Shown in pieces: positions 1 to 64,000 of a stretch of 64,000 nt of DNA. The stretch is from Bacteroidaceae bacterium. GTDB lineage: Bacteria; Bacteroidota; Bacteroidia; Bacteroidales; Bacteroidaceae. The stretch is taken from the NCBI GenBank assembly GCA_017617235.1, contig JAFZWQ010000042.1, positions 18,401-82,400 on the forward strand. Reading direction: 5' to 3'. The notes beneath the pieces are model-generated. The model worked only from the letters and a program-made list of their open reading frames with translations. It did not search any database and was not told the DNA's origin. Position numbers and translations under genes: made by a program. Position 1 is the first letter of the stretch, and the number at the start of each line of letters is the position of its first letter.

Positions 1-115
1 TGCGCAACAAACGAATCAGCACCTTACGTTGCAGAAATTCGGCATCCGTTGCGTATTGGTCCAGCTGTCGCAGGCGTGGAACGAATAGTTTCCTTATCAG
101 TCTAGTCTTATTCAT
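1..115 (-). CDS. First 38 codons of a CDS running off the left window edge. The N-terminus resembles Bacteroidota GH3-domain (auxin-responsive-promoter-like) proteins; this call is tentative.
   Basis: Hand translation of the reverse strand from the ATG at 115-113 gives MNKTRLIRKLFVPRLRQLDQYATDAEFLQRKVLIRLLR with no stop before position 1. Its ATG overlaps the TGA of the upstream aminotransferase (ATGA at 112-115). It is not in the ORF track because it is truncated. Confidence 0.4.
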   Translation of the reverse strand, partial: MNKTRLIRKLFVPRLRQLDQYATDAEFLQRKVLIRLLR

Positions 116-1308
116 TTCAGACGTGCCAAAGTTTCCTTGATGCGGCGCATTGCCTCGACGATGTTCTCGTCGCTTGTAGCGTAGCTCATGCGGAAACATT
201 CGGGGCTGCCAAAGGCATCGCCACCAACGGTAGCTACATGACCAACTTCCAACAGGTACATGGCCAGATCGCTGCTGGTGTTGATAAGACGTTCACCATC
301 GCGTTTGCCAAAGAAACTGCTGCATTTGGGGAACAAATAGAAGGCTCCTTGCGGATCGTTAACCTCCAATCCGGGAATCTCGCGGGCCAGACGTACGATG
401 AGGTTTTTACGGCGCTCGAAAGCCTGACGCATTTCTTCGACGCATTCCTGCGGACCAGCAAACGCCATCTCTGCTGCTTTCTGGCTGACGCTGCATGGGC
501 CGCTGGTGTACTGTCCCTGCAGCTTGTTGCAGGCCTTTACAATCCATTCGGGGGCGGCAATGAAACCAATGCGCCAACCTGTCATGGCATAGGCCTTGCT
601 GACACCATTGATGATGACTACGCGCTCTTTAATGTCTGGGAACTGTGCCATTGAGGCATGTTCGCCAATGTAGTTGATGTGCTCGTAGATTTCATCGGCA
701 ATTACGATTACACGTTCGTGCTTCAGCAAAACATTCTTCAGTGCCTCCAGCTCTTTGCGGCTGTAAACGGCACCAGTAGGGTTGCTGGGTGAACAAAGAA
801 TCAAGGCGCGTGTCTTGGGAGTAATGGCTGCTTCCAGTTGTTCAGGCGTAATCTTGAAGTCCTGTTCGATGCCGGCTTCGATGTACACAGGGGTACCGTC
901 GGCCAGAAGTACCATCTGGGGGTAACTTACCCAATAGGGGGCAGGAATGATGACTTCATCGCCTTCGCCCACTAAAGCCATAATGGTGTTGCACACGCTT
1001 TGTTTGGCACCGTTTGAACAGAGAATCTGTGCAGGGGTGTAGTCTACGCCGTTCTCACGCTTCAATTTTTCCACGATGGCCTGACGCAAAGCAGGATAGC
1101 CAGGTACGGGAGAATATCGGCTATAGTTGTCACGAACAGCCTGAATGGCAGCCTCTTTGATGTGTTCGGGCGTATTGAAGTCGGGTTCACCCACACTCAT
1201 GTTAATGATGTCAATACCTTGTGCCTTCAGTTCACCACTACGCTGACTCATGGCCAGTGTGGCACTGGGCGACAGTCTGTTCATTCTCTCAGATAACATT
1301 GTTTCCAT
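112..1308 (-). CDS. aspC: Class I PLP-dependent aspartate aminotransferase
   Basis: 398-aa ORF. Motifs SVGEPDFNTP, CSPSNPTG and SKAYAMTGWRIG (PLP lysine) are typical of AspC/AspB-type aminotransferases. Confidence 0.9.
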   Translation of the reverse strand: METMLSERMNRLSPSATLAMSQRSGELKAQGIDIINMSVGEPDFNTPEHIKEAAIQAVRDNYSRYSPVPGYPALRQAIVEKLKRENGVDYTPAQILCSNGAKQSVCNTIMALVGEGDEVIIPAPYWVSYPQMVLLADGTPVYIEAGIEQDFKITPEQLEAAITPKTRALILCSPSNPTGAVYSRKELEALKNVLLKHERVIVIADEIYEHINYIGEHASMAQFPDIKERVVIINGVSKAYAMTGWRIGFIAAPEWIVKACNKLQGQYTSGPCSVSQKAAEMAFAGPQECVEEMRQAFERRKNLIVRLAREIPGLEVNDPQGAFYLFPKCSSFFGKRDGERLINTSSDLAMYLLEVGHVATVGGDAFGSPECFRMSYATSDENIVEAMRRIKETLARLK

Positions 1309-1346
1309 AGTATATTAATTTTGCTTTTGTTATTTCATTTTATTGT

Positions 1347-2546
1347 TTACAACTTATGTCCCATGCGGTTTTTCTTCGTCTCGAGGTAGCGACGGTTGTA
1401 TTCGTTGGGTTCGATGACGATAGGTACGTTTTCCACGATTTCCAATCCGTAACCCTCCAGTCCTACGCGTTTCACGGGATTGTTTGTGATGAGTCTAATC
1501 TTTCCAACTCCTAAACTACGCAGAATCTGTGCACCTACGCCATAATCGCGTTCATCAGGCTGGAATCCTAGGTGGATGTTGGCATCCACAGTATCATCGC
1601 CCTGCTCCTGCAACTTGTAGGCGGCTATTTTATTCATCAGTCCTATTCCACGTCCTTCTTGGCTAAGGTACACTACTACGCCTTTGCCTTCGTGTTCGAT
1701 AAGCTCCATTGCTTTGTGCAGTTGCTCGCCACAGTCGCAGCGCTTGCTACCGAAAATGTCGCCTGTCATGCAGCTTGAATGCATTCTTACCAATACGGGT
1801 TCGTCTTCTTTCCACTCGCCCTTGAATAAAGCCACGTGTTCCAGCCCATTGCTTTTCTGACGGAAGGGTACAATGCGGAAGTGTCCGTGTTCAGTGGGCA
1901 TATCTGCTTCCACGCCTTTCTCTACCAGTGATTCGCGTTGCAGACGGTAAGTGATGAGGTCCTTGATGGTGATGATGCGCAGTCCGAACTTCTTTGCGAC
2001 TTCCTGCAACTGGGGCATACGTGCCATTGTTCCGTCCTCGTTAAGAATCTCGATAAGTGCCGATGCGGGTTGCAATCCGGCCAGTCGGGCCAGGTCGATA
2101 GCTGCCTCGGTGTGTCCAGCGCGACGTAGCACACCTTTATCCTGAGCGTAGAGTGGATTGATGTGACCAGGTCGGCCAAAGTCTGATGGCTTGCGTGTGG
2201 GGTCGGCCAGTGCACGAATGGTAGCGGCACGGTCGTGGGCACTGACTCCCGTTGTGCAACCCTCCAGCAAATCAACGGTTACCGTAAATGGCGTTCCTAA
2301 CATCGAGGTGTTCTCTTCCACTTGATGGGCCAGTTGCAGTTCTTCGGCACGGCTGATGGTAATGGGTGCACACAATACGCCACGCCCGTTTTGCAGCATG
2401 AAGTTGACCTTCTCTGCCGTTATGGTCTCTGCTGCGGTGATGAAATCACCTTCGTTTTCACGGTCTTCATCGTCGACTACAATGATGAACTTCCCTTGTC
2501 GGAAGTCCTCAATCGCCAGTTCGATGTTTCTTAAGTTCTCACTCAT
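1347..2546 (-). CDS. ribBA: Bifunctional 3,4-dihydroxy-2-butanone-4-phosphate synthase / GTP cyclohydrolase II
   Basis: 399 aa. N-terminal DHBP synthase motif [14 protein letters not shown]-terminal GTP cyclohydrolase II cysteine cluster [18 protein letters not shown]. Overlaps the upstream permease gene by 8 nt. Confidence 0.95.
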
Positions 2547-4455
2547 ATATTTCGTTTATTTTTCCAATTCGGTTTATGATGTTCTGGGTCTGTTCTTGTA
2601 TGACCGCCATGTCGCGCAAGAGTCGCAAGCGGTAGCGCCATATGCGGAACCAGAAGAAAAGGCCTAAGGGCAGAAAAATTCCTGCTGCCATATTCCAACG
2701 GACATTATCGAAGGGGCGTGTGTGCGCATCGGGCACTAATACGGGTAACTCGTTCAACATCATCACCAGTCGTGTGTCTCTGCTGTTGTGCAGTTCTTCG
2801 ATTATGGCTTCCAATCGTTCATCTATGTCTGCTACAACTGTGTCCTTCTCATATTCAAAGAATATTTTCTTGTAGTTAGGCATGCGCACCAGATGCTTCT
2901 CTTCGACATAGCTTTTGCAATCGTTTTGCAGTTCTGTCATCTGCTGACACAGCTTGGGGTAGTCCGGCTCGTTGATTATTACATCCTTTCGATTCAGTTT
3001 GCGTGATTCGCGCAGTCCGAACAGCCGCATAAAGAACATGCGGTATCCCTCGATGTTAAAGACGGCTGAATCTTGATTCGACTTGTAGGTCAGGAATACT
3101 CCTAAAGGAGCTAGTACCATGCTGCTGAGCCATACTCCAAAGGGAATGTACCATATGCCAGTCTTGGCCAATTTCTCGCCGCTGACGTTAATGATATAGT
3201 AGAAAATAAAAATGCTTACGCTGATAATGACGGGCATACCTAATCCGCCCTTGCGGATGATAGCCCCTAAGGGTGCTCCAATGAAGAAGAAAAGCATGCA
3301 GGCCAGCGAATAGGTGAACTTCTTGTGCTCTTCCACTTTGTGAACACGCAACATGCGGTTGTCCTCATCCGTCAGCAATCTGCGGAACTCGTATTCGGCC
3401 TGCAGTTGGCGCACTTTTGATGTCGCGGTTCGTATCGTGGATTGAAGTTGTTCGTGGCTGAGATTCTTATACAGTGTATCGAATGGTAATGTTTTTTCTA
3501 CTTCTGCTACGATTCGTGCCGAATCTTTGGAATCTTTATGGATTAACTGGCGTTCCATGGAAGTACGGCATTCCATTTCATAAACACTGGCTCCCACACT
3601 GTCTATACGGTGTGTTAAGGAGTCTATGCCCAATCGGATACTCTGTAGATCCTTGGTTTGTGCATTGCCTGCGAACAGCGAGGCATCCGTGATGTTGAAG
3701 TTCCCATCAAATTCAATCAGGTCAACTTCGTGGGCAAATGTCTCACGCATATAGGGCACTTGGGCCTTCATCATGTTGGCACTGCGGCTATCCATATTGC
3801 GAAATCGTTCGCCGCTGTACAGGGTCAGCATCAAGTGCATCTTGTCGGCAGTGCTTTGTAAGCGTGCCGAGTCGGCCAGTACGATTTGTGTGTCTTCCTG
3901 GGTGTTGGCATTACTATAAATCATTACGCCATACAGCATGCCTGTTTTCTGGTCTTTGCGTTCCACGAAGATGTTGTATCCTGGAATCTCGCTATAGAAC
4001 ACCCCCTCGGGGATTTCCAATTCGGGCGACTTCTGTTTCATCGACCATATCAAGGCAGCCAGTCGCTTAGTGGCTTCGGGTGCGATGCTGTTTTGAAAAT
4101 AGAAGCTGCAACCGCACAAAACAAGGACTACCACAAAAAGGGGACTTAGTATTCGCAAGAGGGGAACTCCTGCGGCTTTCATAGCTAACAATTCTAATTT
4201 CTCGCCCATGTTACCAAAAGTGATAAGCGAGGCCAGCAATACACCGGGGGGCAGGGCAGCAGGTACGAAGTTCAGAGCCATATACCAAAAGAACTTTCCC
4301 AATACCTCCATAGACAGTCCCTTGCCAATCAATTCATCGATGTAACGCCATGTATATTGCATCATGAACACGAATAGACAAACGAAGAATGTTGCTGCAA
4401 ACAGCTGCAGAAACGCCTTCAGGATAAACAGGTCTAATCGTTTAATGATTCGCAT
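2539..4455 (-). CDS. LptF/LptG (YjgP/YjgQ) family permease, long Bacteroidota form
   Basis: The ORF-track frame was trimmed to the ATG at 4455 ([15 protein letters not shown]...), because a consensus promoter lies at 4485-4516, inside the longer ORF. It has multiple TM segments at both ends and a large central soluble domain. Confidence 0.85.
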
Positions 4456-14971: not shown

Positions 14972-15700
14972 TCATATCCCATAGCGTTTTTTTTCGTATT
15001 CTTCTCGTGCCAGATGATATTTTTGTTTGGATTCTTCTTGTTCCTTTTCAGTCATTCTTCGGAACCAAATAAGGTTGTATTCAGATGTATTCTCATATGA
15101 GATGGAATCCGCATCTCCTTCCTTTCGTTGCATTCGTAAACGTCGCAGAGCTATGAACTCGTCGTTTCCTATATGATAAGAAAGTATGGTCATAAATTCG
15201 GTGACAATAAATTTTGTTGGTCTTTTACTGTCGGAATAAACTTCTTTTCTAACGTATGTCCAACTGCGTGTATTCCATTCTGTAGATAAGGTGAAAGGCA
15301 CGTTCCAATGATATAGCCCCGAACCTATATGTGCAAATATCATTACACTATCTTTTGAGAAATAAAGTTTTTCAGGATCCTTATCTCCTACAAACAATCC
15401 GTTCCTATCCATAGATGTAATTGAGATTGCCTTACTCCCGTTAGATTTTATGGGATTGTTCATAATTTCAATCCACCCATGACCAACAATCAATCGGTTA
15501 AAATCCTTTTTGGATATGCCTTTCCCTTCCATCGGAACGATGCGGCCGTCGTTGAGCACTTTTAGTTCGGGTGGAGTCCTTTTAAAATCCTTTTGGATGG
15601 AAGAATTCTCTTTTACATCACTAGGAAGTGATACATTGTTTTTGCATGAAGCTAGTAAACATATGAACAAAGATACATATATAATCTTTGCTACTTCCAT
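14972..15700 (-). CDS. Hypothetical lipoprotein, overlapping and co-oriented with the C10 peptidase gene
   Basis: 242 aa. Lipoprotein signal ...FICLLASCKNN. Its start overlaps the peptidase stop by 10 nt. AT-rich codon usage. I recognise no motif. Confidence 0.7.
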   Translation of the reverse strand: MEVAKIIYVSLFICLLASCKNNVSLPSDVKENSSIQKDFKRTPPELKVLNDGRIVPMEGKGISKKDFNRLIVGHGWIEIMNNPIKSNGSKAISITSMDRNGLFVGDKDPEKLYFSKDSVMIFAHIGSGLYHWNVPFTLSTEWNTRSWTYVRKEVYSDSKRPTKFIVTEFMTILSYHIGNDEFIALRRLRMQRKEGDADSISYENTSEYNLIWFRRMTEKEQEESKQKYHLAREEYEKKRYGI

Positions 15701-16944
15701 ATCTCAATGTAGTTTAAATCCTCAGAATAAACTGTTGTCTCATTAGTTGTGCCATAGCCATCAAGTTGGTATGGATTGCCTAAATCAAATAATTCATCCA
15801 GATAATACCCATCATTTATTCCATCCCAACCCCAATTTACGTGGTTATAGGTTGTTGTTATTATAGTTGGTGTGTTTGCAGGTCTAGAATATCGTTGAAG
15901 GTAACTGTCAACGAGAAAAGCATGACCATATCCTGCTCCTTCAGCTTTTCCCGTAACTAATATAATATGATCATTAATTAACGGGTTTATAGTACAGCCT
16001 GAGAAATATGCATAAAAAGAAGTGCATTGCAACCCCATTATATTTAGACAATAAGGTATCTTTTCGGTTTTAATTAAAGTGTAATTAAAGTTAGAATCGT
16101 TTTTTTCTGTTAGTTCTCCAATTTGTCTCATAAGATAACTAATGTCGTTATGAACTTGTGTTGGATTGATAGCTGTACATTTTGTCGAATCTATTATGCT
16201 TACGTCATGATAGATTTTATGCTTTTTTATTTCAGTCCAATTCAAATACAATGTGTCAGGATGGTTGCTATATCCTATATATGTAAGAGGCAATGTGTCT
16301 GGAGCCTCAAAATATGCTAAGGTCTGTGCAATAGCCACAGGACCGCATCCTGCCAATCCATTGTTGTATTCCATCCCATAATATGCTTCTTGCCCCCATC
16401 TTACAGGAATTTTTGGATTAAATATGTAGAAAGGTAATAACGTTGAATCATTCATTATTGGAGGACGACCTCCAAATCTTGTCATAACATAAATCTTTGC
16501 CCTTTCCATCATCATTGAAAAGGATTTATTTTTTTGTTTTTCAGATGGATTGTAATGTCCATATTCGGCAATTGAGATAAGGCCGGGTGTCGCCTTGTTC
16601 CCAGAAACTACAGCAAAACCAAGACTATCTTCAAAGTTAAAAATAAACATTAATGTATCAATATTAATATTGTGCTCACTTCGTGTAAGGTGGTTATTGC
16701 AAACTATCTGCGTTGAATCAATACATATCTTCCGGCTATTGAAGGTTGAGCGAGTCGTTGTGTTTTTTTCTAGTTCATTAATGGCATCTTGTGCAATCTG
16801 AAGTGCTTCATCAAAAGTTCGTTGCATTGAACTTTCATCTGCAAATGATGTAGAAGGAAACTTGCCCGGTTCCCAATTATCTGAGCAAGAAATAAATATT
16901 ATGTTTATTAGAATTAAAAGAGTGTAAAATAATATTTTATTCAT
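15691..16944 (-). CDS. C10 family (streptopain/interpain-like) cysteine peptidase lipoprotein with an N-terminal propeptide
   Basis: 417 aa. Lipobox ...IFISCSDN. Catalytic Cys context GLAGCGPVAIAQTLAYF (Cys codon at 16345-16347). Catalytic His context GYGHAFLVDSY. The N-terminal region resembles the Spi inhibitor-like propeptide. Confidence 0.85.
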   Translation of the reverse strand: MNKILFYTLLILINIIFISCSDNWEPGKFPSTSFADESSMQRTFDEALQIAQDAINELEKNTTTRSTFNSRKICIDSTQIVCNNHLTRSEHNINIDTLMFIFNFEDSLGFAVVSGNKATPGLISIAEYGHYNPSEKQKNKSFSMMMERAKIYVMTRFGGRPPIMNDSTLLPFYIFNPKIPVRWGQEAYYGMEYNNGLAGCGPVAIAQTLAYFEAPDTLPLTYIGYSNHPDTLYLNWTEIKKHKIYHDVSIIDSTKCTAINPTQVHNDISYLMRQIGELTEKNDSNFNYTLIKTEKIPYCLNIMGLQCTSFYAYFSGCTINPLINDHIILVTGKAEGAGYGHAFLVDSYLQRYSRPANTPTIITTTYNHVNWGWDGINDGYYLDELFDLGNPYQLDGYGTTNETTVYSEDLNYIEIWK

Positions 16945-54072: not shown

Positions 54073-54102
54073 TAAAAAAAGAGGTAAGAATTCTCACCTC
54101 TT
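54073..54102 (-). terminator. Intrinsic terminator ending the fimbrillin/outer-membrane operon
   Basis: The minus strand reads AAGAGGT-(loop)-ACCTCTT, followed by a T7 run (54079-54073), 15 nt after the stop at 54117. Confidence 0.7.
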
Positions 54103-54116
54103 TCTTTCCTTCTATA

Positions 54117-56075
54117 TTAAAAAGAATATGTCAGTCCGATGTGGTCGTAGATGTAGAAGCGTTCAAAGGATTTCCTGAAATTAACCTGTCCCATGGGTTC
54201 TAGGAAGATGGACCAGTTATCCTTGACATAATAGCGGGCTTGCAATGCACCAGCCCATGCCATCGTGCCGCGGGTACCTACGACGTGGCTTACGAGTTGT
54301 GGATTATTGCCGCCAATCATCTCACCTTTGGCAAGCTCACGCTTGCCCTTAATGTTGGCATTGAAGACGGGCCCCGTAAGTACGCTGAGCTGGAAGCGTT
54401 GCCGCGTTTGATGGTAGCCAATCAAATTGTTCAGTCGTAGTTGATACAAAAGACGAATAGACAGACTATGGTAGTTGATATTCCACATACCATTGTATCG
54501 TTTCAATGCACCTGCGACTGTTACATCGTAAGGTTGCATTGATGCGGTATGTTTCTGTGCATAGTCTATTTGTAGGAGGGCTGTGGCCCATGCATTGAAT
54601 TCACGCCCAAAACTTCCTACTACGCTATTGTTTATTTTGTGGCTTCCGCTATAGGTCTCGCTTCGTGTTACAACACGCATATCGCCCCAGGCCACGGAAC
54701 CAAAGAAACGTGATGGAGTTTTGTATTTTTCTGCCACCTGCGTGCTGTCCTTCGTTTCTTGTTTTCCACGTATGTCGCGATTTAGACGCACACCGGCCGA
54801 TATCATGGCGAAATGTTCCTTATAACCCTTTTTATTACTGGTGTTAGAATAAGGCACATTATAGAACATCCAAGTATAACGTGGCTCTACATATAGCATA
54901 GCATTATCTGTTTTGGGTAGCTTAAAGAGCACCTGTGTGCCCATAGTGGCACCCAAATAGCGAATAAGCAATCCTTGTCCAGCCTCTCCGAACTTTCCCA
55001 GCTCCATACCACCCGACAGGTTCACATCAAAATACTTATTATTGCGCCATTTCTCGCTTACACTAAAGGGTGAAAGCAATAATTCCAGTCTGCCACCGAC
55101 AAAGACACCACGTTGACGTGTCGTGTATTTAGGATGAACTTGCTGACCAGAAATAATGATAGGACCAGTGGTCTGAGTACTGCAAAAATAGTCTTGCATA
55201 TGGGTACCCAGACGCAGACCCACAATGCGAGTTGGCCAATAGCCAAAAGCAAACGAATAAGCAGACCCAACGGATGTGGATGCCTGTGAAATGCCTTGTG
55301 CGGAATTAAGTGGCAGAGTTACACCCTGTGAAGCCTCAACAAAGAATGTCGATGCACTCATGTTGCGCCCTGTAAAGCGTTTGGGCATAAAGTCGAGTAA
55401 CAGGTTGGCATTTACGCCATACATAAACTCATAGAACGTAGTGTTCTGCTTCTTATAAAGGTAAGGTTGGTCGCGGATGACACCTAAGTAGGGTTGCAGT
55501 GATAAACCAATATTATTTCCTAAACTCAACGTTACATCTGCTCCAACCAAACCATAGGGTGATTTCTCCCTATTCCCATTGTTTCCGCTCATACGACCTC
55601 CAATACCTATAAATCCGGAGAACGTGGCTACACGTCGAACCGAATATCCACGGGTATAGTTGGTGAAGTTCAGGAAATAGTCCAGTTCCATGGCGGCGCT
55701 GCGGACGTCGCGTCCATTTTTGCGGTGCAGTTCAGCATACGATAACTTTCCTTGGAGGGCGTGTACGGGTGAGAATTGATAAGCCAGTGTTGCATTGATG
55801 GGAATGCTGTAGCTGGATTGACTCTTATTGGTCTGTCCATTATAACCCGTACCCAGTCCAACACGAAAACGGTTGTACCATCGTACGGATTTGTTATAGG
55901 CTTGTGCCGTAGAATCTCCCTTTGGCAGGTAACGCGGTTGTAATTGGCCCTCTTCTCCCGTCACCTTTGCAGCCCATTCGTGTGTATCGATGCTGTCACG
56001 TTTCGACTGCGCCATTGTCGGCACATTCGTCAGCGTGAGTAGTAATATGATCAATATCAATCCAAGCCGTTTCAT
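54117..56075 (-). CDS. 652-aa predicted outer-membrane beta-barrel protein, apparently three barrel-like modules in tandem; function unknown
   Basis: Signal peptide MKRLGLILIILLLTLTNVPTMAQ. Amphipathic alternating beta-strand patterns throughout. C-terminal ...IGLTYSF ends in the aromatic residue typical of outer-membrane proteins. Confidence 0.7.
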   Translation of the reverse strand: MKRLGLILIILLLTLTNVPTMAQSKRDSIDTHEWAAKVTGEEGQLQPRYLPKGDSTAQAYNKSVRWYNRFRVGLGTGYNGQTNKSQSSYSIPINATLAYQFSPVHALQGKLSYAELHRKNGRDVRSAAMELDYFLNFTNYTRGYSVRRVATFSGFIGIGGRMSGNNGNREKSPYGLVGADVTLSLGNNIGLSLQPYLGVIRDQPYLYKKQNTTFYEFMYGVNANLLLDFMPKRFTGRNMSASTFFVEASQGVTLPLNSAQGISQASTSVGSAYSFAFGYWPTRIVGLRLGTHMQDYFCSTQTTGPIIISGQQVHPKYTTRQRGVFVGGRLELLLSPFSVSEKWRNNKYFDVNLSGGMELGKFGEAGQGLLIRYLGATMGTQVLFKLPKTDNAMLYVEPRYTWMFYNVPYSNTSNKKGYKEHFAMISAGVRLNRDIRGKQETKDSTQVAEKYKTPSRFFGSVAWGDMRVVTRSETYSGSHKINNSVVGSFGREFNAWATALLQIDYAQKHTASMQPYDVTVAGALKRYNGMWNINYHSLSIRLLYQLRLNNLIGYHQTRQRFQLSVLTGPVFNANIKGKRELAKGEMIGGNNPQLVSHVVGTRGTMAWAGALQARYYVKDNWSIFLEPMGQVNFRKSFERFYIYDHIGLTYSF

Positions 56076-56082
56076 CGTTTCG

Positions 56083-58674
56083 CTATTTCTTATCTGAGAA
56101 ATATTTCTTTGCTAATTCGTCGTATTCTCGAGCTATATTCTCCATCTCTTCTCCATCCTGCATGCGTCGCCAGAAGAATAATATCATGGCACGATAAGCA
56201 TCGTTAAAGAATCCGTCTTCTTTCAGAAATTCTGCCCATTTCGGATCTAGTTTCAAAGCTTCGAGCATTGGCATTCCCCAATGTTGACTTTCTGCAATGT
56301 CGTTATGCGGGTCATAGACATTTTTACTATTATAGTAATAGGTCTCATAATCCTTCTCTTTACAGTCTACCTGATATAGACATATGGCCAAAAGGTAATA
56401 GTACGTAGCGTCTAGGGTATCCGCCTTCATAAACTGCCTTTTGTTATTGATGAGTTTATCTTTTGCTCGTCTGAAGCCTTTCTCTCCATCAATAAGGTTG
56501 GCGACTACATAGTTGATGGCTCCTGTACTTTCGATATCCTTTCGCATTACTTCCTTTTCGTCCTCTGTATATTCGCACGACAGGAACTTAATGAAATTTT
56601 GGAACTTTCGGTAACGGTCATTTTCGGGTAGATGATATTGCGAGAGAATGTGTGCCTCTTTGTATTTTTCAGCCATGCAGTACATCAGAATCTGTTTTAC
56701 TGCGATGGCCTCCTCGTTCCAATGCTTTTGACCGACTTTTTCTTTATAGCGTCCGTTGTTGGCAACTGTGTCCAGATAGTTTTTCAGGGTAAGTGTATCC
56801 ATGATACCTTTTTCTATCTCGCTCTTAGCCAGATAGTAGGCAGCTAATGGATAGGCACGTTCCACGGGTATACGTTCTTCCGTAAAGAATTTTGTTGAAT
56901 CCTCCGGGTCGCGTTCGCCGGTATAAACGGAACGTGTCGTCTGTTCTTTCATTTTCTGATTAGAACTATTATATGCAGCTTTCGAGACAGCATACAGCGC
57001 ATCCCAGTCTTTTTCTTTATTCAGCCGCACCATCAACTGGTAGAACTGATAAGGAGCAACTTCTTTGATTGTACCATTTAGCCAGTCTTCTCTCTTTTCT
57101 ACAAATCTTTGATAGATTTCATCAGCATCAAGTACCCTATCTTCTACAACATTTACTGTTACCTTTACACGACGCATACGGTCAAGAATCTTATCCTCCT
57201 TCAATATCCTAAAGTAGGGCTTCTTATTTATAATATTTCCTTGGTCGTCTAATGTTGACTTCTCAGTACATACATTTCGGATATCTTGTGCAATCTCGGC
57301 ATACCCTTCAGCATTGATGGCTTCTAGCGTGTCAGCGACTTCCGTCCAGGGTACAATATCGGATTTTATATCTGCGTATAGATTCCTGACTTCGGATGAG
57401 CAGATATTTCCAACGGTTTGGGCTCGTTTCTGTGCCAAATCTTTGTTTCCAGTTTCTCTTCCTTCTGGTGATGCATAACCATGGATGGAAATTCCGGAGA
57501 CGTATGATGTATCACTCTGAGATGCCCGTATGCTTCTTTTCAAAGCCTCTATACTATAATATGTAAGACTGTCGTTGTAATTCAAGGTCGCCTTACCGTT
57601 TTCAAAGTCGAGCTTTAGCGTGTTTTCATGAGGTACTGACGTGACGGTACCTCGGATACTATAACGTTTGTCGTCCAAATCTTCTTTGGGCACCGATTCT
57701 TTCCATTCTAGGAAATGTGTCGGGCTTTGTGTGTAGCCCGCATATATTAGGATGTTGTTTTCGTAATAGATGGTGTTGTAATCCTCGTACCAATAGTGGC
57801 CAATAATCTTCCATGGCTTTTTGTCGTTATAGGGCCGAATCTTGCAATGGAAATAGATGGTGTCCTCTTCACGAGTCTTCATACCCGTGTTGAAGTAATT
57901 GGCAGAGGGCTCATCTCCCATTACGCTTACGTTTTGCCAATATTTATCGTGCGTTTTGTCAAATCCCATGAAACGAACTTGTGAGGGGTCGTAATCTATA
58001 CCATCAAGGAAACGGGGAGCCAAATAGCCAATGGTGTCATTTGGATTGTGGCGACTTACCACTACGGGTGAAATAACAAAACGGGCATTGTTACGTGCAT
58101 AAATGCTGTCGATAATGATTGGGTGTGGGCCTACAACGAGTACACCTCCACAACTGGATGCATTTGCTGTAAGCCTACGTCTTCGTGTCGAAGTATATGC
58201 ACTTACCACGGTTTCGTCCAAGTCGGCACTCATTTCTGCTTCTGCACTTTCGCCGGCACTATTACTTAGTTTCAGTTGTATCCTAATCTCGTCACTGCGT
58301 ATCTCGGCATTTGTTACTTGGCGGTTTATGGTTTCGTACTGTCCGTTTTTATAATCGTAGATAAGCAGATAACCATTAACGGGTATCTTGATGACGATAC
58401 TACCGCTCACTTCCGTAATTTGGAAATCTACATATTCGTCGCTAGAAATATTGTCTTCTTTAAAGTCGTTAAGTTTTTGAAGAACTTTATCCGCCTGCGA
58501 TTTCATATAGCAACTGTACACGTAGATACCTTCGACTCCGCTTTCTTTGTTCGTTTTGGGATTCTTGGAGTATATATAGACATTCTTCGTCTGTGCGGAA
58601 GCCTCCACACCAAAGAACGTGAGGAAGGTTGCCAGCATCAGAAATCTTAGGAATGTGCGCATAGTTATAGGCAT
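56083..58674 (-). CDS. 863-aa DUF3868-like protein with an OmpA-like peptidoglycan-binding motif and a long helical C-terminal extension
   Basis: Signal peptide. OmpA_C-like motif ISIHGYASPEGRETGNKDLAQKRAQTV. The C-terminal ~400 aa is rich in helix-forming, repeat-like sequence. Located 4 nt after the DUF3575-like gene. Confidence 0.7.
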   Translation of the reverse strand: MPITMRTFLRFLMLATFLTFFGVEASAQTKNVYIYSKNPKTNKESGVEGIYVYSCYMKSQADKVLQKLNDFKEDNISSDEYVDFQITEVSGSIVIKIPVNGYLLIYDYKNGQYETINRQVTNAEIRSDEIRIQLKLSNSAGESAEAEMSADLDETVVSAYTSTRRRRLTANASSCGGVLVVGPHPIIIDSIYARNNARFVISPVVVSRHNPNDTIGYLAPRFLDGIDYDPSQVRFMGFDKTHDKYWQNVSVMGDEPSANYFNTGMKTREEDTIYFHCKIRPYNDKKPWKIIGHYWYEDYNTIYYENNILIYAGYTQSPTHFLEWKESVPKEDLDDKRYSIRGTVTSVPHENTLKLDFENGKATLNYNDSLTYYSIEALKRSIRASQSDTSYVSGISIHGYASPEGRETGNKDLAQKRAQTVGNICSSEVRNLYADIKSDIVPWTEVADTLEAINAEGYAEIAQDIRNVCTEKSTLDDQGNIINKKPYFRILKEDKILDRMRRVKVTVNVVEDRVLDADEIYQRFVEKREDWLNGTIKEVAPYQFYQLMVRLNKEKDWDALYAVSKAAYNSSNQKMKEQTTRSVYTGERDPEDSTKFFTEERIPVERAYPLAAYYLAKSEIEKGIMDTLTLKNYLDTVANNGRYKEKVGQKHWNEEAIAVKQILMYCMAEKYKEAHILSQYHLPENDRYRKFQNFIKFLSCEYTEDEKEVMRKDIESTGAINYVVANLIDGEKGFRRAKDKLINNKRQFMKADTLDATYYYLLAICLYQVDCKEKDYETYYYNSKNVYDPHNDIAESQHWGMPMLEALKLDPKWAEFLKEDGFFNDAYRAMILFFWRRMQDGEEMENIAREYDELAKKYFSDKK

Positions 58675-58678
58675 GGGG

Positions 58679-59221
58679 TTATTTGATGATGTACGAGAAG
58701 CTGAGGCCTATGCGATAGGGTAGCATCTTGAATCCGTGATTGTCCTTGTGATGTGTTTTGGGGTCGTAGCTGTCACCATCGTAGTACATATGTTGGTAGT
58801 AAGCCGATAGCTGAGTGCCGGCTGAAACTTCCATGTTCCAGCGTTTGCTCAGAGGCTTAACGTAGCCAAACTCCAGGCCTACGCCGACAGCGTCTCCCTT
58901 GAAATGTTTACCTTTCCAATTAATGTTGTAGGTTGTAGCCATAGCGCCTACACCCATGAAAAGGTGTATCATGGGGCGTCCGCCAATCCAGTAACGGAAC
59001 TCCGGCAACGCCCCGAGTGTCATAAAATCTTGGCCCATTACATACACGCTGCCAAAAGCCGCCAGCGCTACGCTCGTTTTGCTGCCTGTCGATATTTCCA
59101 CTTCCAAGTTGGGCATCAGAGCCGCATCCATCAGCACATTCGTCTTCAGGGCTACCAATTGGGCCTGGGTAGCCGTGGAGATCATCCATGATAGGGTAAG
59201 TAGTAATAACAGGCGTTTCAT
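58679..59221 (-). CDS. DUF3575-like small outer-membrane beta-barrel protein
   Basis: Start reset to MKRLLLLLTLSWMISTATQAQ (59221). LVALKTNVLMDAALMPNLEVE and LPEFRYWIGG match my recollection of the DUF3575 family signature (LKTNLLYDA..., PEYRYW). Confidence 0.75.
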   Translation of the reverse strand: MKRLLLLLTLSWMISTATQAQLVALKTNVLMDAALMPNLEVEISTGSKTSVALAAFGSVYVMGQDFMTLGALPEFRYWIGGRPMIHLFMGVGAMATTYNINWKGKHFKGDAVGVGLEFGYVKPLSKRWNMEVSAGTQLSAYYQHMYYDGDSYDPKTHHKDNHGFKMLPYRIGLSFSYIIK

Positions 59222-59240
59222 TCTTCTTTCTTTTTTGTTA

Positions 59241-59277
59241 ATCTGCGAGGGAGAGACCAATTTCTCCCCCTCACAGA
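59241..59277 (-). promoter_or_regulatory. Intercistronic stem-loop between the last fimbrillin-like gene and the DUF3575-like gene
   Basis: ATCTG-C-GAGGGAGA...TCTCCCCCTC-A-CAGAT. Outer 5-bp and inner 8-bp stems (one 2-nt bulge), with no U-tract. Confidence 0.5.
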
Positions 59278-59289
59278 TGTTATAGGGTA

Positions 59290-60450
59290 TTACAGTTCTA
59301 ATGCAGGTCCTGGTAGATCTTCCCAGTCTTCCAACTGGCCCTTAAGAGAAATCTCCCTTGGACCATGTACTGTGATATTTACCGTATAGGATTTACCACG
59401 AGCGAACATTATTGGATTCTGTTCGTCAAATGTCAGTGTCAGAGGAATCTCACTAATATGCTCAACATCGTTTTCATCGAGCAAGACAATCTTAATGACA
59501 TACGAGGTTGCAGGGAAAAGCATGAAACTTTCACCAACCTGCAGAGCGGGATCCGTATGCAGGGGAACTTGAGTCAGTGTTAATGCAGTTCCATCAGGAT
59601 TCTTCAAAGCCAGATCTGCTTTGGTGTCATCACGCAATGTGACACGAAGTACATGATCTGGATCGCTCCAATCAGCTTCGTCGATGTTCTCGCGATCGGC
59701 AACTCGAATGTCCAGATTCGTGTAGGCATCAACAATTTCAATGCTCTTAACTTTCATTGCCTCTGCCTGGGAATAGTCACCTGACTGATGATAGCTTTCA
59801 CCAGGCTGTACGGTAAATGTCAAACGGGTCAGTAAATGCTTTAGTTCCAAAACGGGGTCTGGAGCCAGTAAACCTGGATGGTTTTCTGGATACTTGCGAT
59901 AATACTTCGCACTATAAGCATAATCCTCGTTACTGGTGGCGCGACCCCAAATGAGATCCTGTGTACCATCGATGGTGTAGTGAGCAACAACATCGTTGTC
60001 GTTACGGTCAATGTCGTCGGTATATGGATAGTAACCGTAGAAATCGTAGTTGTAGAATTGGGTTATAGGATAGAAATATTTCCCAGTCCAACTAATATCT
60101 CCACTCTCCATCCGTGCTTCTACGTTGTCCATAATGCAATAGGTTATATTTGCATTGGGAGCATTGAACCACTGAATGTCATAAGCCGCAGGGTTAGTGC
60201 CTTGCTTGGCACGTGCCAGGGCGAATATACCCATATTTTCGAGTATAGCTGTACTCTCGTCGCCAATGATGGCGGCACGAGTAATCGTAGCTGTTTCTTG
60301 ACCACGTAGCCGTATTTCGTATGTGCTGTTGCCTTCAATATACTCTCCACTTTCGTTCAGCCAATCGGAAGGTCTTGTTTCTTCCGATGCGCAGCTGGCA
60401 AATAGGAGCATGCCGATGGCAAGAGACATATAATAATTAATACGCTTCAT
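59290..60450 (-). CDS. Fimbrillin-like (Mfa-like / type V pilin fold) lipoprotein
   Basis: 386 aa. Lipobox LLFASCASEE. Shared paralog motifs LKHLLTRLTFTV and a C-terminal KSYTVNITVHG...WED. Confidence 0.75.
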   Translation of the reverse strand: MKRINYYMSLAIGMLLFASCASEETRPSDWLNESGEYIEGNSTYEIRLRGQETATITRAAIIGDESTAILENMGIFALARAKQGTNPAAYDIQWFNAPNANITYCIMDNVEARMESGDISWTGKYFYPITQFYNYDFYGYYPYTDDIDRNDNDVVAHYTIDGTQDLIWGRATSNEDYAYSAKYYRKYPENHPGLLAPDPVLELKHLLTRLTFTVQPGESYHQSGDYSQAEAMKVKSIEIVDAYTNLDIRVADRENIDEADWSDPDHVLRVTLRDDTKADLALKNPDGTALTLTQVPLHTDPALQVGESFMLFPATSYVIKIVLLDENDVEHISEIPLTLTFDEQNPIMFARGKSYTVNITVHGPREISLKGQLEDWEDLPGPALEL

Positions 60451-60470
60451 GATAGAATTCTTGTTTTTTA

Positions 60471-61922
60471 TTAGTCTTCGTCTTCGGTGCTCAGGTTAAG
60501 TTCCTCGCCATCAGTCCACTGTTCAAGTTCAGCTTTGACGGTGATATCATGGAGACCGTAAACGGTGATAACTACGTGATAAGACTTTGCACGTTCAAAT
60601 TCAACGGGTACTCCAGGATTTTGGGGATCTTCGGGGAGTACTAGATCCAAATCAGTGTCAGCCCACTGAGTTGCCAAAACGGGAACTTCAGGAGTCAAAG
60701 GATCACCATCATCGTCAATAGTACCAGTTTGAGCCTTTTGGCTAAGATAGAGCTTAATGGTATATAAGTTTTCACCGGGCTTTACAAAAAATGCATCACC
60801 TACAACGGAACGGGTGTCTTTTGCACCAACAGCATATTCCTCCAAAAGTATTTGCTCAGGCTTACCATTAGCAAGGTCAGCTGCGGGAGCAGCACCATCC
60901 TGTTGAGTCAGGTACATTTCCACGGGATCATTACCAACAGCATCCCATTCGATGAGGCTGTTAATGTCAAATTCGCCATTGTCAATGTCAAAATCAGCAA
61001 TATTCTTTGCTGCAACAGTCAGGGTACCTTTGCTCTTTGAGAAAATAGAGATGGTGTCGACTGCAAGCTGAGTTGTAGCGTTGCTGTTATCGCCGGATTT
61101 GATTTCGAATGTGAAACGAGTCAGCATGTGCTTCAACTGAATCAAAGGAATAACATCTGCACGTGCAGTCGTTCCAGAGAAACCACGCTTTGGGCCGGGG
61201 TAGTTCGTAGCCTTACCCACCATGATGTCCTGAGAACCGTCAATGGTGAAAGGCAATACAATCTTCTCACCCAGGTCTCTTAGGGGTGTCGGTGTGGCTG
61301 CTTGTGGGTCATTTACGACTTGGGCACCATCCCACAAATAGCTTTTAAGTTCAGTCGTTCCATCATAACGGATTTCGTAACCATCGCCATTGTAAAGCAC
61401 AGGATTACCATTTGCGTCCACATCATTGGCAGCATTGTCAATGTAGTAACCAAAGAAGTCATTGTACTTCTGCAGGGGATAGTACTTCAGAGCACCATTC
61501 GTGAAGTCGTTGTACTTCAGTTCAGTGTTGGTTTCAGTCTCGAGGGGACGGCAAATGAAGGTGTTGTTAAACTGCTCACCCAGAGAACCTCCACAGTTAC
61601 TGAAACTCCAATAGTCACCGGCATTAGCCCATGTGCCGTCTGTACCCAAATCCATCATCAGGACATAGACGTCTTCGAAGTTGAACTTATTGGTTCCAGC
61701 GGTTGTACCACCGACTGTACCAGTACCAATTCCTGTTCCGGCGGCATTGGCACGTGTCTCGGTAACACTAGCAGCAGCCGTTGTCAGACTCAGATTGACA
61801 CGCTCAAGACCAAGGGCTTCAGCTTCGGCATTTTGCAGCTGGGCGGGACTCAGAGCCTCGTCAGACGTACAACTGCTCATCGCAGCAGCTACGAGAGCTG
61901 CCATAAACAAACTTTTTTTCAT
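60471..61922 (-). CDS. Fimbrillin-like (Mfa-like / type V pilin fold) lipoprotein
   Basis: 483 aa. Lipobox AAMSSCTSDE. Motifs LKHMLTRFTFEI and a C-terminal KSYHVVITVYG...QWTD. Confidence 0.75.
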   Translation of the reverse strand: MKKSLFMAALVAAAMSSCTSDEALSPAQLQNAEAEALGLERVNLSLTTAAASVTETRANAAGTGIGTGTVGGTTAGTNKFNFEDVYVLMMDLGTDGTWANAGDYWSFSNCGGSLGEQFNNTFICRPLETETNTELKYNDFTNGALKYYPLQKYNDFFGYYIDNAANDVDANGNPVLYNGDGYEIRYDGTTELKSYLWDGAQVVNDPQAATPTPLRDLGEKIVLPFTIDGSQDIMVGKATNYPGPKRGFSGTTARADVIPLIQLKHMLTRFTFEIKSGDNSNATTQLAVDTISIFSKSKGTLTVAAKNIADFDIDNGEFDINSLIEWDAVGNDPVEMYLTQQDGAAPAADLANGKPEQILLEEYAVGAKDTRSVVGDAFFVKPGENLYTIKLYLSQKAQTGTIDDDGDPLTPEVPVLATQWADTDLDLVLPEDPQNPGVPVEFERAKSYHVVITVYGLHDITVKAELEQWTDGEELNLSTEDED

Positions 61923-61967
61923 GATTTAATTGTTTAAGTGAAACATAAAAAATATATAACTCGTTTT

Positions 61968-63314
61968 TTAATCTTCTGTTTGCCAATCTATTGTTCCTGC
62001 TTGTTCCCATATCTCTCCGTTGAGGACGTCGATGGATACTTCTTCACGGCCATATATCTTCATCCAAATGGTGTATTTGGAGCCTGGTTTAAATGGTCTC
62101 TGTTCAACAGGAAGTGATAATTTATGTATACTATGCTCTTGTTTACCTTTGGTTAATTCCAGATTTACTTTCCACTGTTGGCTTTCGGTGTCGTAATAGT
62201 AGAGAACATAAGTATATTTTAGTTCTATTTCAACGCTTTCTGTCATGGCTGGGAGCATGACGGGAAGGCACATGTCTTTGGGTTCTTCTGAATTAACATG
62301 GAAATATGGCTGGGTTCTACTAACAATGCCATTGTCTAATAGCTGTTGTTGTAAACTGTTGAAATCCACATCTACTACGCTGACATTTTGCATGTCTTGT
62401 TGGATGACTTCAAGATTGTATTTTTTCTCTCCCTCCCAAGTTAAGATTTCACCATTATCTACGGCGCGGTTATAACTTGCTTCGTCCTGCCAATTACTAC
62501 GGGCAATATACAATGTTCCTTTAGCAGGGGCTTTTATGTTGACTTCGTTAATGATGACCTGTAGGTATGAGTATTTTTTCTCATTGTTTTTACCAGTTGG
62601 AACGCCTTGTACTTTCAGGTCGAAGCGAGATAATAGGTGCTTGAGGTGGAACTGCGGGTGTATGCCACGGTTGCCTGCCATTCCACTATAGAGGTAATCA
62701 CGTCCTTCGTTACCATTAGTGAAGAGCTTCGTTTCGTCGTTGTCTGGCATTTGACTTATCAAATTTGTAAGATCCTGATCTGTGTGATAAGCGAAGCCAT
62801 GCATGACATCTTGTCGTCCATTGATGGTTATATTAGTTTTGAGGACTCCCGGTTCGGATTTCCCGTCGAGCTTAAACGTATCTGGCGCATCTGTAAAGTA
62901 TGTAAAGAAATTATAGCGCCGTGTACGCCATGGACTGTAGTATTTCTCTTCTTCTTGCCCATTTTCGTCATAGAACTTTAGTTCACCATTGGCGTTCTTG
63001 ATGCGCATGAGCTGATTGTAAATCTCAATGTCGCTTTTCGAATAATCTCGAGCCCCATTGTATACTCTATTATGATCTAATAGTGCAAATGTGCGGAAAT
63101 TGGCATTTAGCCAGTGAGACGGGTCATCGCTCCACTTTTCGAACGGACCCGTACTGCGGGTTGTGGTGATGTCGTATTCTATGCCTTCTTTTACGATAGG
63201 CCGGATGCGGACAAGTGTATCGTCGTATCCCTCACCAACCAACTCATTATCGCTGCACGCAATCATGCATACAGAAAGAATACTTATGATAATGTATATA
63301 TATCTATTATTCAT
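61968..63314 (-). CDS. Fimbrillin-like (Mfa-like / type V pilin fold) lipoprotein
   Basis: 448 aa. Lipobox VCMIACSDN. Motifs LKHLLSRFDLKV and a C-terminal SKYTIWMKIYG...IWEQ. Its start overlaps the stop of the upstream paralog by 8 nt. Confidence 0.75.
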   Translation of the reverse strand: MNNRYIYIIISILSVCMIACSDNELVGEGYDDTLVRIRPIVKEGIEYDITTTRSTGPFEKWSDDPSHWLNANFRTFALLDHNRVYNGARDYSKSDIEIYNQLMRIKNANGELKFYDENGQEEEKYYSPWRTRRYNFFTYFTDAPDTFKLDGKSEPGVLKTNITINGRQDVMHGFAYHTDQDLTNLISQMPDNDETKLFTNGNEGRDYLYSGMAGNRGIHPQFHLKHLLSRFDLKVQGVPTGKNNEKKYSYLQVIINEVNIKAPAKGTLYIARSNWQDEASYNRAVDNGEILTWEGEKKYNLEVIQQDMQNVSVVDVDFNSLQQQLLDNGIVSRTQPYFHVNSEEPKDMCLPVMLPAMTESVEIELKYTYVLYYYDTESQQWKVNLELTKGKQEHSIHKLSLPVEQRPFKPGSKYTIWMKIYGREEVSIDVLNGEIWEQAGTIDWQTED

Positions 63315-64000
63315 ACGTTATTTCATTATCTCCATCTGCAATTCCAAATCTTCCTCCATCTTTCCATTGTTCGTCGTCGATGCCAGTTACGGTGGCTGAG
63401 ATCTTTCCTCCATCGCTGTAGACGTAAATGGTGAGTGTGTATTTTGTACCTGCCTTGAAGGGGATGAATGTTCCATTTTCATCGTGCAGGGTCAGTTCGC
63501 TTTCTGAAGTCACATCGCGATAGTATTTGCCATCTTTGTTTAGAGCAAGGTCGCCTGTGGGGGTGATGTTCATGGCGCGTCCCCTCATAACGAGGTGATA
63601 GCCCATCATAGGCGGCACGAGGATTGTTTTGCATAGACGGTGCTGTGAGATGTCTCCAATATGGAAGTATGCCGTATCCTGTGCGCCCATCAGCTGTTCC
63701 CAATCCTGACGGATCTGCCCGTAGTTGTATCCCATTTTCTGCTGGTTGTATGCAGTGTTCTGGATATGGTTGTGATACATGTCGAGTTGATAGGTGGCGT
63801 TGCCCTTGGTGGAAAGCAATGTGTTGGCTGCTACTTCTGCCTCGTAGGTTTGCTCTGTCCAACTGTCGTCGGCAACCTTCAGGGTGACTTGTTTGGGGGC
63901 ATCGAGCGTAATGTCGTCGATGAGCATATTCAGGAACGAATAGTCGGTATTCAGTCCTTCGACACCTTGTATGTAGATATCGAAACGGCAGAGCATGTGA
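63307..64000 (-). CDS. Fimbrillin-like protein, C-terminal part only (5' end lies beyond the right window edge)
   Basis: The frame is open to position 64000. The window edge reads (H)MLCRFDIYIQG, which aligns with the mid-protein (K)H(L/M)L(T/S)RF motif of the three paralogs. The listed Met at 63996 is therefore internal. The C-terminal GTKYTLTIYVY...QWKD pattern is conserved. Confidence 0.7.
   Translation of the reverse strand, partial: HMLCRFDIYIQGVEGLNTDYSFLNMLIDDITLDAPKQVTLKVADDSWTEQTYEAEVAANTLLSTKGNATYQLDMYHNHIQNTAYNQQKMGYNYGQIRQDWEQLMGAQDTAYFHIGDISQHRLCKTILVPPMMGYHLVMRGRAMNITPTGDLALNKDGKYYRDVTSESELTLHDENGTFIPFKAGTKYTLTIYVYSDGGKISATVTGIDDEQWKDGGRFGIADGDNEITYE

Follow-up and report, generated by a model that had tools for sequence, protein, structure and literature searches.

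We analyzed a 64,000-nt stretch of contig JAFZWQ010000042.1 from a Bacteroidaceae bacterium (GCA_017617235.1, positions 18,401-82,400; hereafter the window) and found that its region 54117-64000, on the minus strand, is the 3' two-thirds of a 10-gene operon of ~14 kb in which predicted type V pilins are encoded together with outer-membrane and periplasmic proteins. Outside the window, the operon opens with a 572-aa helical secreted protein, a long DUF3575 barrel protein and a DUF5119-like lipoprotein; it continues with four pilins (A, B, C and D), a short DUF3575 barrel (E), a PgmA-like protein (F) and a multibarrel protein (G). We are highly confident of the identity of these parts. For the operon as a whole we tentatively favor an account in which a peptidoglycan-tethered multi-barrel platform, made of E, F and G, would accompany type V pili and would not act as an assembly channel; the mechanism of such a platform is put forward with somewhat more reserve.

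Gene layout of the operon

Seven minus-strand open reading frames (ORFs) fill 54117-64000 in the ORF listing of the window. The gene for pilin A extends from 63307 to beyond 64000, where the window edge cuts it, leaving the C-terminal 230 aa inside. It is followed by pilin B (61968-63314, 448 aa), pilin C (60471-61922, 483 aa), pilin D (59290-60450, 386 aa), E (58679-59221; 180 aa if read from the ATG, 193 aa if started at a TTG further upstream), F (56083-58674, 863 aa) and G (54117-56075, 652 aa), all on the minus strand. A and B overlap by 8 nt, and the remaining spacings are 45 nt (B-C), 20 nt (C-D), 68 nt (D-E), 4 nt (E-F) and 7 nt (F-G).

These coordinates agree with the seven genes and the gaps given in a first-pass annotation of the window, which had also described the locus as AT-richer than its neighbors and had placed the operon start beyond the window. 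Both of the latter points hold. The GC content is 44.6% in 54117-64000 versus 50.5% in the remaining window, and no other 9.9-kb stretch of the window is so low (minimum 48.2%). When the locus was extended upstream through contigs encoding exactly identical pilin B, such as L001 and L003, three more genes were found to precede pilin A. The F protein of the window is 100% identical to a protein of a 'Bacteroidaceae bacterium' metagenome-assembled genome (MAG), and the source is an uncultured ruminant-gut Prevotellaceae/Bacteroidaceae bacterium.

The pilins and the DUF5119-like lipoprotein

The four pilins share a mid-protein motif, which reads KHLLTRL(TF) in D, KHMLTRF in C, KHLLSRF in B and NHMLCRF in A, and a C-terminal signature, Y-x-V/I-x-I-x-V-H/Y-G...W, in which A has S for G. 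They form a chain of paralogs (A-B, 4e-49; B-C, 5e-8; C-D, 8e-16), as expected from the four paralogous lipoproteins with shared motifs recognized in the first-pass annotation. Its count of at least four fimbrillin-like genes can be made exact: four are Mfa-like, and one DUF5119-like lipoprotein lies upstream. Pilin D passes the Pfam Mfa_like_1 cut-off (4e-16, 60.2 bits against 27), and Mfa_like_1 is also carried by pilin orthologs at two related loci (L008 and L010). Pilin C is sub-threshold (Mfa_like_1, E=0.057; N-terminus of fim_Mfa1_fam, 8e-4). A and B are tied to Mfa_like_1 via paralogy alone; B has no direct Pfam match and is assigned to the Mfa-like group through transitive paralogy.

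The maturation signals are consistent with this assignment. In full, A is a 461-aa lipoprotein (L001 8623-10008) with the lipobox ...MAAC and IATR/G near residue 64, and its window part is 100% identical to L001. The corresponding sites are MIAC/SDNE and TTTR/S (residue 53) in B; MSSC/TSDE and TETR/A (residue 57, then a Gly/Thr-rich stretch) in C; and FASC/ASEE and ATITR/A (residue 58) in D. Thus all four pilins (A read from L001) have a lipobox Cys with acidic or polar residues behind it, and T-x-T-R followed by G, A or S at residues 53-64. Of the 65 pilin-family proteins at all the fetched loci, 60 carry a lipobox and 49 show acidic residues behind the Cys; the Arg motif x-T-x-R occurs in 41 of the 60 lipobox-bearing members. 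Type V pilins are known to mature through such signals, a lipobox and an Arg site (PMC13655056). By homology with FimA and Mfa1, for which this pathway has been demonstrated, A-D would be exported as lipoproteins, cleaved after the arginine of T-x-T-R and polymerized by strand exchange, and we class them, from their sequences, as Mfa-like type V pilins. PDB sequence searches with D, F and G returned nothing, and in profile searches neither the lipoprotein family nor the pilin family reached a significant match (4qdg, E=0.54; for the pilin profile, the fimbrial protein BF1861, 3sy6, E=0.17).

The gene immediately 5' of pilin A encodes a 373-aa lipoprotein with weak resemblance to DUF5119, and two of its orthologs exceed the DUF5119 cut-off. 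Its family mostly lacks the Arg motif and has no significant likeness to the pilin profile (HHalign 5.5%). We recognized no member of the FimB/Mfa2 anchor family in the operon, even after the upstream extension in which such an anchor had been anticipated; that the DUF5119-like lipoprotein serves as an anchor that remains lipidated is only a guess. In two loci (L020 9461-10189 and L046 5458-6666), this lipoprotein sits between long and short DUF3575 genes where there is no Mfa-like pilin gene, and it seems to be bound to the envelope module more tightly than the pilins are. The locus encodes neither an Arg-specific protease nor a lipoprotein flippase and three operon genes lie outside the window, so the self-contained system described in the first-pass annotation is not what the window holds.

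E and F resemble FimX and PgmA

E passes the Pfam DUF3575 family (PF12099) at 115.9 bits against a gathering score of 21.1 (1.7e-33), which upholds its earlier description as a DUF3575-like small barrel. It has a signal peptidase I signal with Gln at +1. We compared it with the Porphyromonas gingivalis fim locus on a metagenome contig, L040, which was fetched with a fimA primer sequence. FimX of this contig is itself a DUF3575 protein (4.7e-77, 257.7 bits), and E matches it by BLASTP at 4e-14. E is thus, as judged from sequence, a DUF3575 small outer-membrane barrel homologous to FimX.

PgmA of the same contig has a weak DUF3868 match (22.1 bits, under the cut-off of 27), a GYASPEG-type OmpA-like domain and C-terminal tetratricopeptide repeats (TPRs). 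The AlphaFold model of F (mean pLDDT confidence 77) has a comparable arrangement, with an N-terminal beta domain (residues 28-133), a disordered linker, a beta-sandwich (172-311), an OmpA-like domain (~345-511) bearing the motif GYASPEG...N..LA..RA, and a helical/TPR-like C-terminus (517-862). In Foldseek, the F model matches the OmpA C-terminal domain with a TM-score of 0.70 and also the PorE C-terminal domain, and 11 of 18 F-family members give a weak OmpA match. PgmA is matched by the F-family profile over residues 194-359 (2.6e-15), while HHalign pairs F 352-511 with PgmA 199-358 at 96.5%; a collinear match of the F profile (164-235) to the DUF3868 region of PgmA (33-104) is weak and non-significant (independent E-value 0.074). 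The earlier reading of F as DUF3868/OmpA-like therefore stands for its OmpA-like part. For the DUF3868 part it does not, as Pfam DUF3868 (PF12984) found no match at E<=0.1 in F or in 27 other family members, and because of this we name F PgmA-like and not a DUF3868 member. We conclude that F is a PgmA-like secreted, presumably periplasmic protein, whose OmpA-like core is homologous to that of PgmA on the strength of the profile matches. The 572-aa helical protein showed no detectable kinship to F or PgmA, BLASTP and HHalign aligning the signal peptide only.

G is a predicted poly-8 multibarrel protein

The model of G is all-beta (pLDDT 72; predicted TM-score, pTM, 0.59). G consists of three homologous repeats of ~190 aa (repeat-versus-repeat HHalign 98-99%, E 1e-14 to 1e-19), each with 8 long beta-strands by DSSP on the model, and ends in the beta-signal ...GLTYSF. 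Foldseek returned generic outer-membrane barrels only, with a TM-score of ~0.14 to 22-stranded barrels, and because of this low score a single large barrel is disfavored. The repeats have no detectable kinship to DUF3575 (HHalign probability <4%). As the first-pass annotation proposed, G is a multi-barrel protein; its model places it in the poly-8 multibarrel outer-membrane class predicted in 2021, with the barrels presumably closing separately. Relatives of G have 3, 4 or 7 repeats. An exhaustive search yielded 544 representatives of the family at E<=1e-3, up to 2889 aa in length; word-indexed homolog searches gave figures far too low for family sizes (20, 10 and 13 matches).

The architecture of E and G bears on whether the three proteins could form an assembly or translocation machine, a device of the usher or Slam type that would flip the pilin lipoproteins across the outer membrane or catalyze their polymerization. 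The Slam translocon combines a TPR domain and a barrel, and F has a TPR-like domain of its own; moreover, E-F-G would be co-transcribed with the pilins. As late as 2026 the outer-membrane sorting of type V pilins was called unknown (PMC13655056), and an usher role was once suggested for PgmA (PMC7482747). We nevertheless regard an usher-like role as improbable, because the 8-stranded units of G and E would have no translocation lumen and because fimA alone still forms fimbriae when the strain has lost its entire fim cluster (PMC3436787). FimX and PgmA are both dispensable for FimA polymerization (PMC3436787), there is no Pfam match to ushers or DUF560, no usher is among the top 50 Foldseek matches of G, and triads of E, F and G relatives exist where no pilins are encoded.

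Conservation of the DUF3575-F-G triad

A search of species-representative genomes with an F alignment gave 22 species-level loci, in which ORFs were classified by purpose-built hidden Markov models. All relatives are MAGs from ruminant or herbivore gut. The recurring set comprises the helical protein, the long DUF3575 protein, the DUF5119-like lipoprotein, 2-6 pilins, the short DUF3575 protein, F and G. The gene order of the window is also found in L008, L010, L013, L014, L028-30, L032 and L033; in those whose upstream flank is covered (L008, L010, L028, L029 and L033) the leading helical protein is missing. F lies ahead of the pilins in L019. Synteny of DUF3575-F-G holds down to ~24% identity. 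In searches with distant G proteins, an F-family gene lay directly 5' of G in seven of the seven evaluable contexts (L034, L035, L036 twice, L045, L046 and L047), L036 carrying two tandem triads, and F is in turn preceded by a DUF3575 gene in every context whose sequence extends that far. Pilin genes are present in 13 of the 22 species-level loci. Because the F-G pairing is complete in the distant contexts and pilins occur in 13 of 22 loci, we consider DUF3575-F-G the conserved core and the pilins frequent but optional passengers.

This distribution lends some weight to the alternative that the triad is an independent envelope module, acting as a general outer-membrane-peptidoglycan tether or a multivalent barrel-loop adhesin with no functional link to pili, into which, in some lineages, pilin cassettes were inserted between the two DUF3575 genes. 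Four loci (L015, L021, L026 and L036) have the triad with no pilin gene within 10 kb, and in L016 and L018 the order is rearranged and the pilins lie in a convergent unit. For poly-8 proteins in general, avidity-based adhesion was proposed by Solan et al. in 2021 (PMC8346858). An independent module is nonetheless unlikely in our view: where pilin genes are inside the cluster, they are often bracketed by two DUF3575 genes and lie <=7 nt from E, the homologous FimX-PgmA pair is likewise found in the pilus cluster of a distant genus, and the DUF5119-like lipoprotein stays with the module in the pilin-free L020 and L046. The first-pass annotation's three outer-membrane genes are tightly coupled and syntenic with pilin arrays in distant relatives; its word 'dedicated' fails on the pilin-free triads.

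The number of barrels also varies with the presence of pilins. G has 7 repeats (1367-1529 aa) in pilin-free loci and 3 in most pilin loci, the 7-repeat set being L015, L019, L020, L021, L026 and L027; L019 is exceptional in having both pilins and a 7-repeat G.

A few further genes and contigs were observed in the course of this comparison. A ~240-aa secreted protein is encoded between F and the helical-protein gene in L022-L025 and L027, with weak Fib_succ_major and Lcl_C matches in a Pfam scan of the L024 copy only. The gene after G in L045 (3591-5225) is a fusion of Mfa_like_1 and Lcl_C. L033, which carries a full Bacteroidales-type module, is labeled a 'Clostridium sp.' MAG, and the label is probably a binning error.

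Allele replacement in F

Strain comparison with L001 and L002 revealed that the F segment 56427-58668 (minus strand) is swapped for a divergent allele with 46% aa identity to the F of the window. The strain with the other allele agrees with the window at 99.0% of nucleotides over the pilins and E, and at 97.4% over G and the genes downstream of it. One break point is at the start of F and the other ~345 nt before its stop. The other allele shares 81% identity with F from another species (L014), and the divergence peaks in the N-terminal 150 residues (24-30% identity). This pattern of sequence divergence suggests selection or recombination specific to F.

Upstream genes and transcription signals

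The first gene of the operon, for the 572-aa secreted helical protein, is intact in L003 (304-2022) and split in L001 (4106-5809) into ORFs of 413 and 144 aa, which may reflect a frameshift or a pseudogene in one strain. The second gene encodes 558 or 561 aa, comprising a DUF3575 barrel (48.6 bits), a coiled-coil rich in Lys and Glu, and a tail of acidic Ser/Asp/Pro sequence. Five proteins of the operon are predicted signal-peptidase-I substrates, namely E, F and G of the window and the helical and long DUF3575 proteins from L003, and all of them have Gln at the predicted +1 position (...AQA/Q, ...ASA/Q, ...MA/Q; by eye), in agreement with the 'Q-rule' of Bacteroidetes.

A Bacteroides-type promoter, TTTG-N19-TACCTTTG, lies 35 nt 5' of the first ATG (L001 4089-4119). 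About 75-145 nt 5' of this promoter (L001 3945-4015) are three direct copies of CATTCATCGGCGA with overlapping palindromes, which we consider, from their sequence, a candidate regulator binding site. The first-pass annotation had raised the possibility of invertible elements or recombinases upstream of the operon. A promoter was found there; an invertible promoter was rejected, since the region 5' of the operon has no long flanking inverted repeats and no recombinase, only the short palindromes and CATTCATCGGCGA repeats. Scans with sigma-70 and terminator consensus sequences were uninformative, the sites being no commoner than in shuffled sequence and the true terminator being missed. In the L001 contig, porP-gldK-gldL-gldM, genes of type IX secretion (T9SS), lie divergently 5' of the operon (1-3845), and gldN-gldM lie ~8 kb 3' of the module in L046 (20059-22280). 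The presence of T9SS genes near the module in these two unrelated genomes, and not in most other loci, may be a coincidence.

Within the operon, two RNA structures fold far better than shuffled sequence. A 16-bp hairpin between D and E (59241-59278, minus strand; dG -28.2 kcal/mol, z = -5.6) has no U tract, and an intrinsic terminator ends the operon (54074-54107, minus strand; hairpin dG -18.5 kcal/mol, z -4.3, then a U run). The stem-loop after the pilins and the terminator after G had both been called previously, and the folding energies support them. The D/E hairpin is kept in L012, L013 and L014 with compensatory changes; other hairpins occupy the same position in L008, L033 and L024, and none is present where the gap between pilin and E is <=7 nt. 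Because no more than 7 nt lie between the final pilin gene and E in L010, L029, L031 and L032, we consider co-transcription of the pilins with E to be ancestral. No TAnnTTTG promoter motif was found between D and E. Since the D/E hairpin lacks a U tract, we read it as a candidate mRNA-stability or attenuation element that probably holds the dose of E-F-G under that of the pilins.

We also considered a role in regulation or sensing, in which the barrel/OmpA-like pair would report envelope or pilus status and control pilin expression, comparable to the effect of fimX/pgmA mutations via FimS/FimR. Inactivation of fimX and pgmA was found to lower fimA transcription (Nishikawa 2004, cited after PMC3436787), where the insertions first used could have had polar effects. 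In Bacteroides thetaiotaomicron, BT4233-36 bring DUF3868, DUF3575 and a response regulator together near the Mfa1-like BT4227 (PMC10434189). Among the neighboring genes on the extended contigs, by contrast, there is no regulator gene in or beside the present operon, and sensing would leave the need for a protein of three to seven barrels unexplained. A role in regulation or sensing is, in our judgment, quite unlikely.

Other features of the window

Elsewhere in the window there is a low-GC islet (14972-16944, 34-37% GC). One of its products is a 417-aa lipoprotein in which a Peptidase_C10 domain (1e-16) is accompanied by a Spi-inhibitor prodomain (1e-9); the other, encoded next to it, is a 242-aa lipoprotein with no family match. 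Weak CBM_4_9, T4_tail_cap and SnoaL matches in the Pfam scan of the window proteins were set aside as noise.

Proposed role of E, F and G

In the account that we favor, E (one barrel) and G (three barrels) would be seated in the outer membrane and F would reside in the periplasm, where its beta and TPR-like domains would bind the barrels and its OmpA-like domain would bind peptidoglycan. Together, E, F and G could act as a split, multivalent OmpA, forming an outer-membrane raft tethered to the wall. In pilus operons, such a raft may stabilize or position the lipid-anchored base of the pilus, and it could perhaps exert feedback on the expression of the pilins, but it would not be a secretion or polymerization channel. 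The first-pass annotation had proposed an assembly or anchoring platform. The tight coupling of E-F-G, the synteny with pilins and the fractionation of PgmA with the outer membrane (PMC3436787) support the platform, while the 8-stranded barrels with no lumen and the dispensability of FimX and PgmA speak against its being an assembly channel. Nor is the idea as new as it was taken to be: with an usher role suggested for PgmA (PMC7482747) and the dispensability of the pair demonstrated (PMC3436787), the assembly-platform hypothesis has been raised before and partly refuted in P. gingivalis.

Several points weigh against the platform. In F, the canonical peptidoglycan-binding Asp of OmpA-like domains is apparently replaced (GYASPEG, in an alignment by eye). 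The model of G is compatible with three separate barrels as well as with one 24-strand barrel. When fimX and pgmA were added in P. gingivalis, fimbriation was not visibly changed (PMC3436787). With no pilin gene within 10 kb of the triad in L015, L021, L026 and L036, a pilus-specific role would not be required. The swap of F alleles between near-identical strains is unexpected for a purely periplasmic scaffold and sits awkwardly with this role, and the roles that we assign to the F and G families are drawn from sequence and models.

Part of what the locus contains was known: the pilin part is ordinary, and E-F is a diverged form of a gene pair familiar for some twenty years, fimX and pgmA having been members of the fim cluster since 2004 with no assigned function. 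What is new is that this pair has a multibarrel outer-membrane protein as its fixed partner, together with the wider set of five envelope proteins, the dimorphism of F alleles and the embedding of a poly-8 protein in pilus operons. Type V pili are the main adhesive fibers of gut and oral Bacteroidales, and the FimX/PgmA pair now appears as part of a larger conserved module that includes a multibarrel protein, of a class with no solved structure or known role. The locus offers three testable links: of pilus operons with wall tethering, of multibarrel outer-membrane proteins with a partner protein, and of a hypervariable F allele with a selecting force. That the triad is a previously unrecognized, widespread envelope machine of Bacteroidales we consider rather unlikely. 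If it were, FimX and PgmA would gain a function after 20 years, multibarrel outer-membrane proteins would gain their first, and the triad might share in the outer-membrane sorting step of type V pilins. If the triad is only a general envelope staple, the result is a useful but ordinary annotation.

Comparison with known systems

The closest known counterpart is the fimX-pgmA pair of P. gingivalis. In both cases a gene for a ~190-aa DUF3575 protein is directly followed by one for a beta-sandwich/GYASPEG OmpA-like/TPR-helical protein within a type V pilin cluster. The pair is located 5' of the pilins (fimA-E) in P. gingivalis and 3' of them here. PgmA has 490 aa and F 863 aa, F having gained in length through one more domain at the N-terminus and a far more extended helical region. 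The P. gingivalis locus lacks G, a second long DUF3575 gene and the helical protein, all of which are present here.

With FimA/Mfa1, the pilins share lipoprotein precursors, an Arg site ~50-65 residues in, the Mfa_like_1 family and the grouping of paralogous subunits in one operon. The present operon differs in having no recognizable FimB/Mfa2 anchor, for which the DUF5119-like lipoprotein with no Arg motif may substitute. Chaperone-usher systems and the Slam/TXISS lipoprotein translocon likewise encode outer-membrane proteins alongside a surface fiber or lipoprotein cargo; the operon described here has no 24-strand usher, no 14-strand DUF560 barrel and no chaperone, and has 8-stranded repeats instead.

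G resembles the poly-8 proteins of Solan et al. (PMC8346858) in its tandem 8-stranded barrel repeats per chain and its Prevotella/Bacteroides-type hosts, a likeness of architecture. Those authors reported 2-11 repeats, against 3, 4 or 7 at the loci studied here and higher numbers in the wider family; their study was a census by sequence and contact map in which the word stem 'fimbri' does not occur. Finally, OmpA is built of the same two modules as the triad, 8-stranded outer-membrane barrels and an OmpA-like periplasmic domain. The Asp of its canonical peptidoglycan site is apparently not conserved here, and in the triad the modules are carried on separate polypeptides, with 4 (1+3) to 8 (1+7) barrels per OmpA-like protein.

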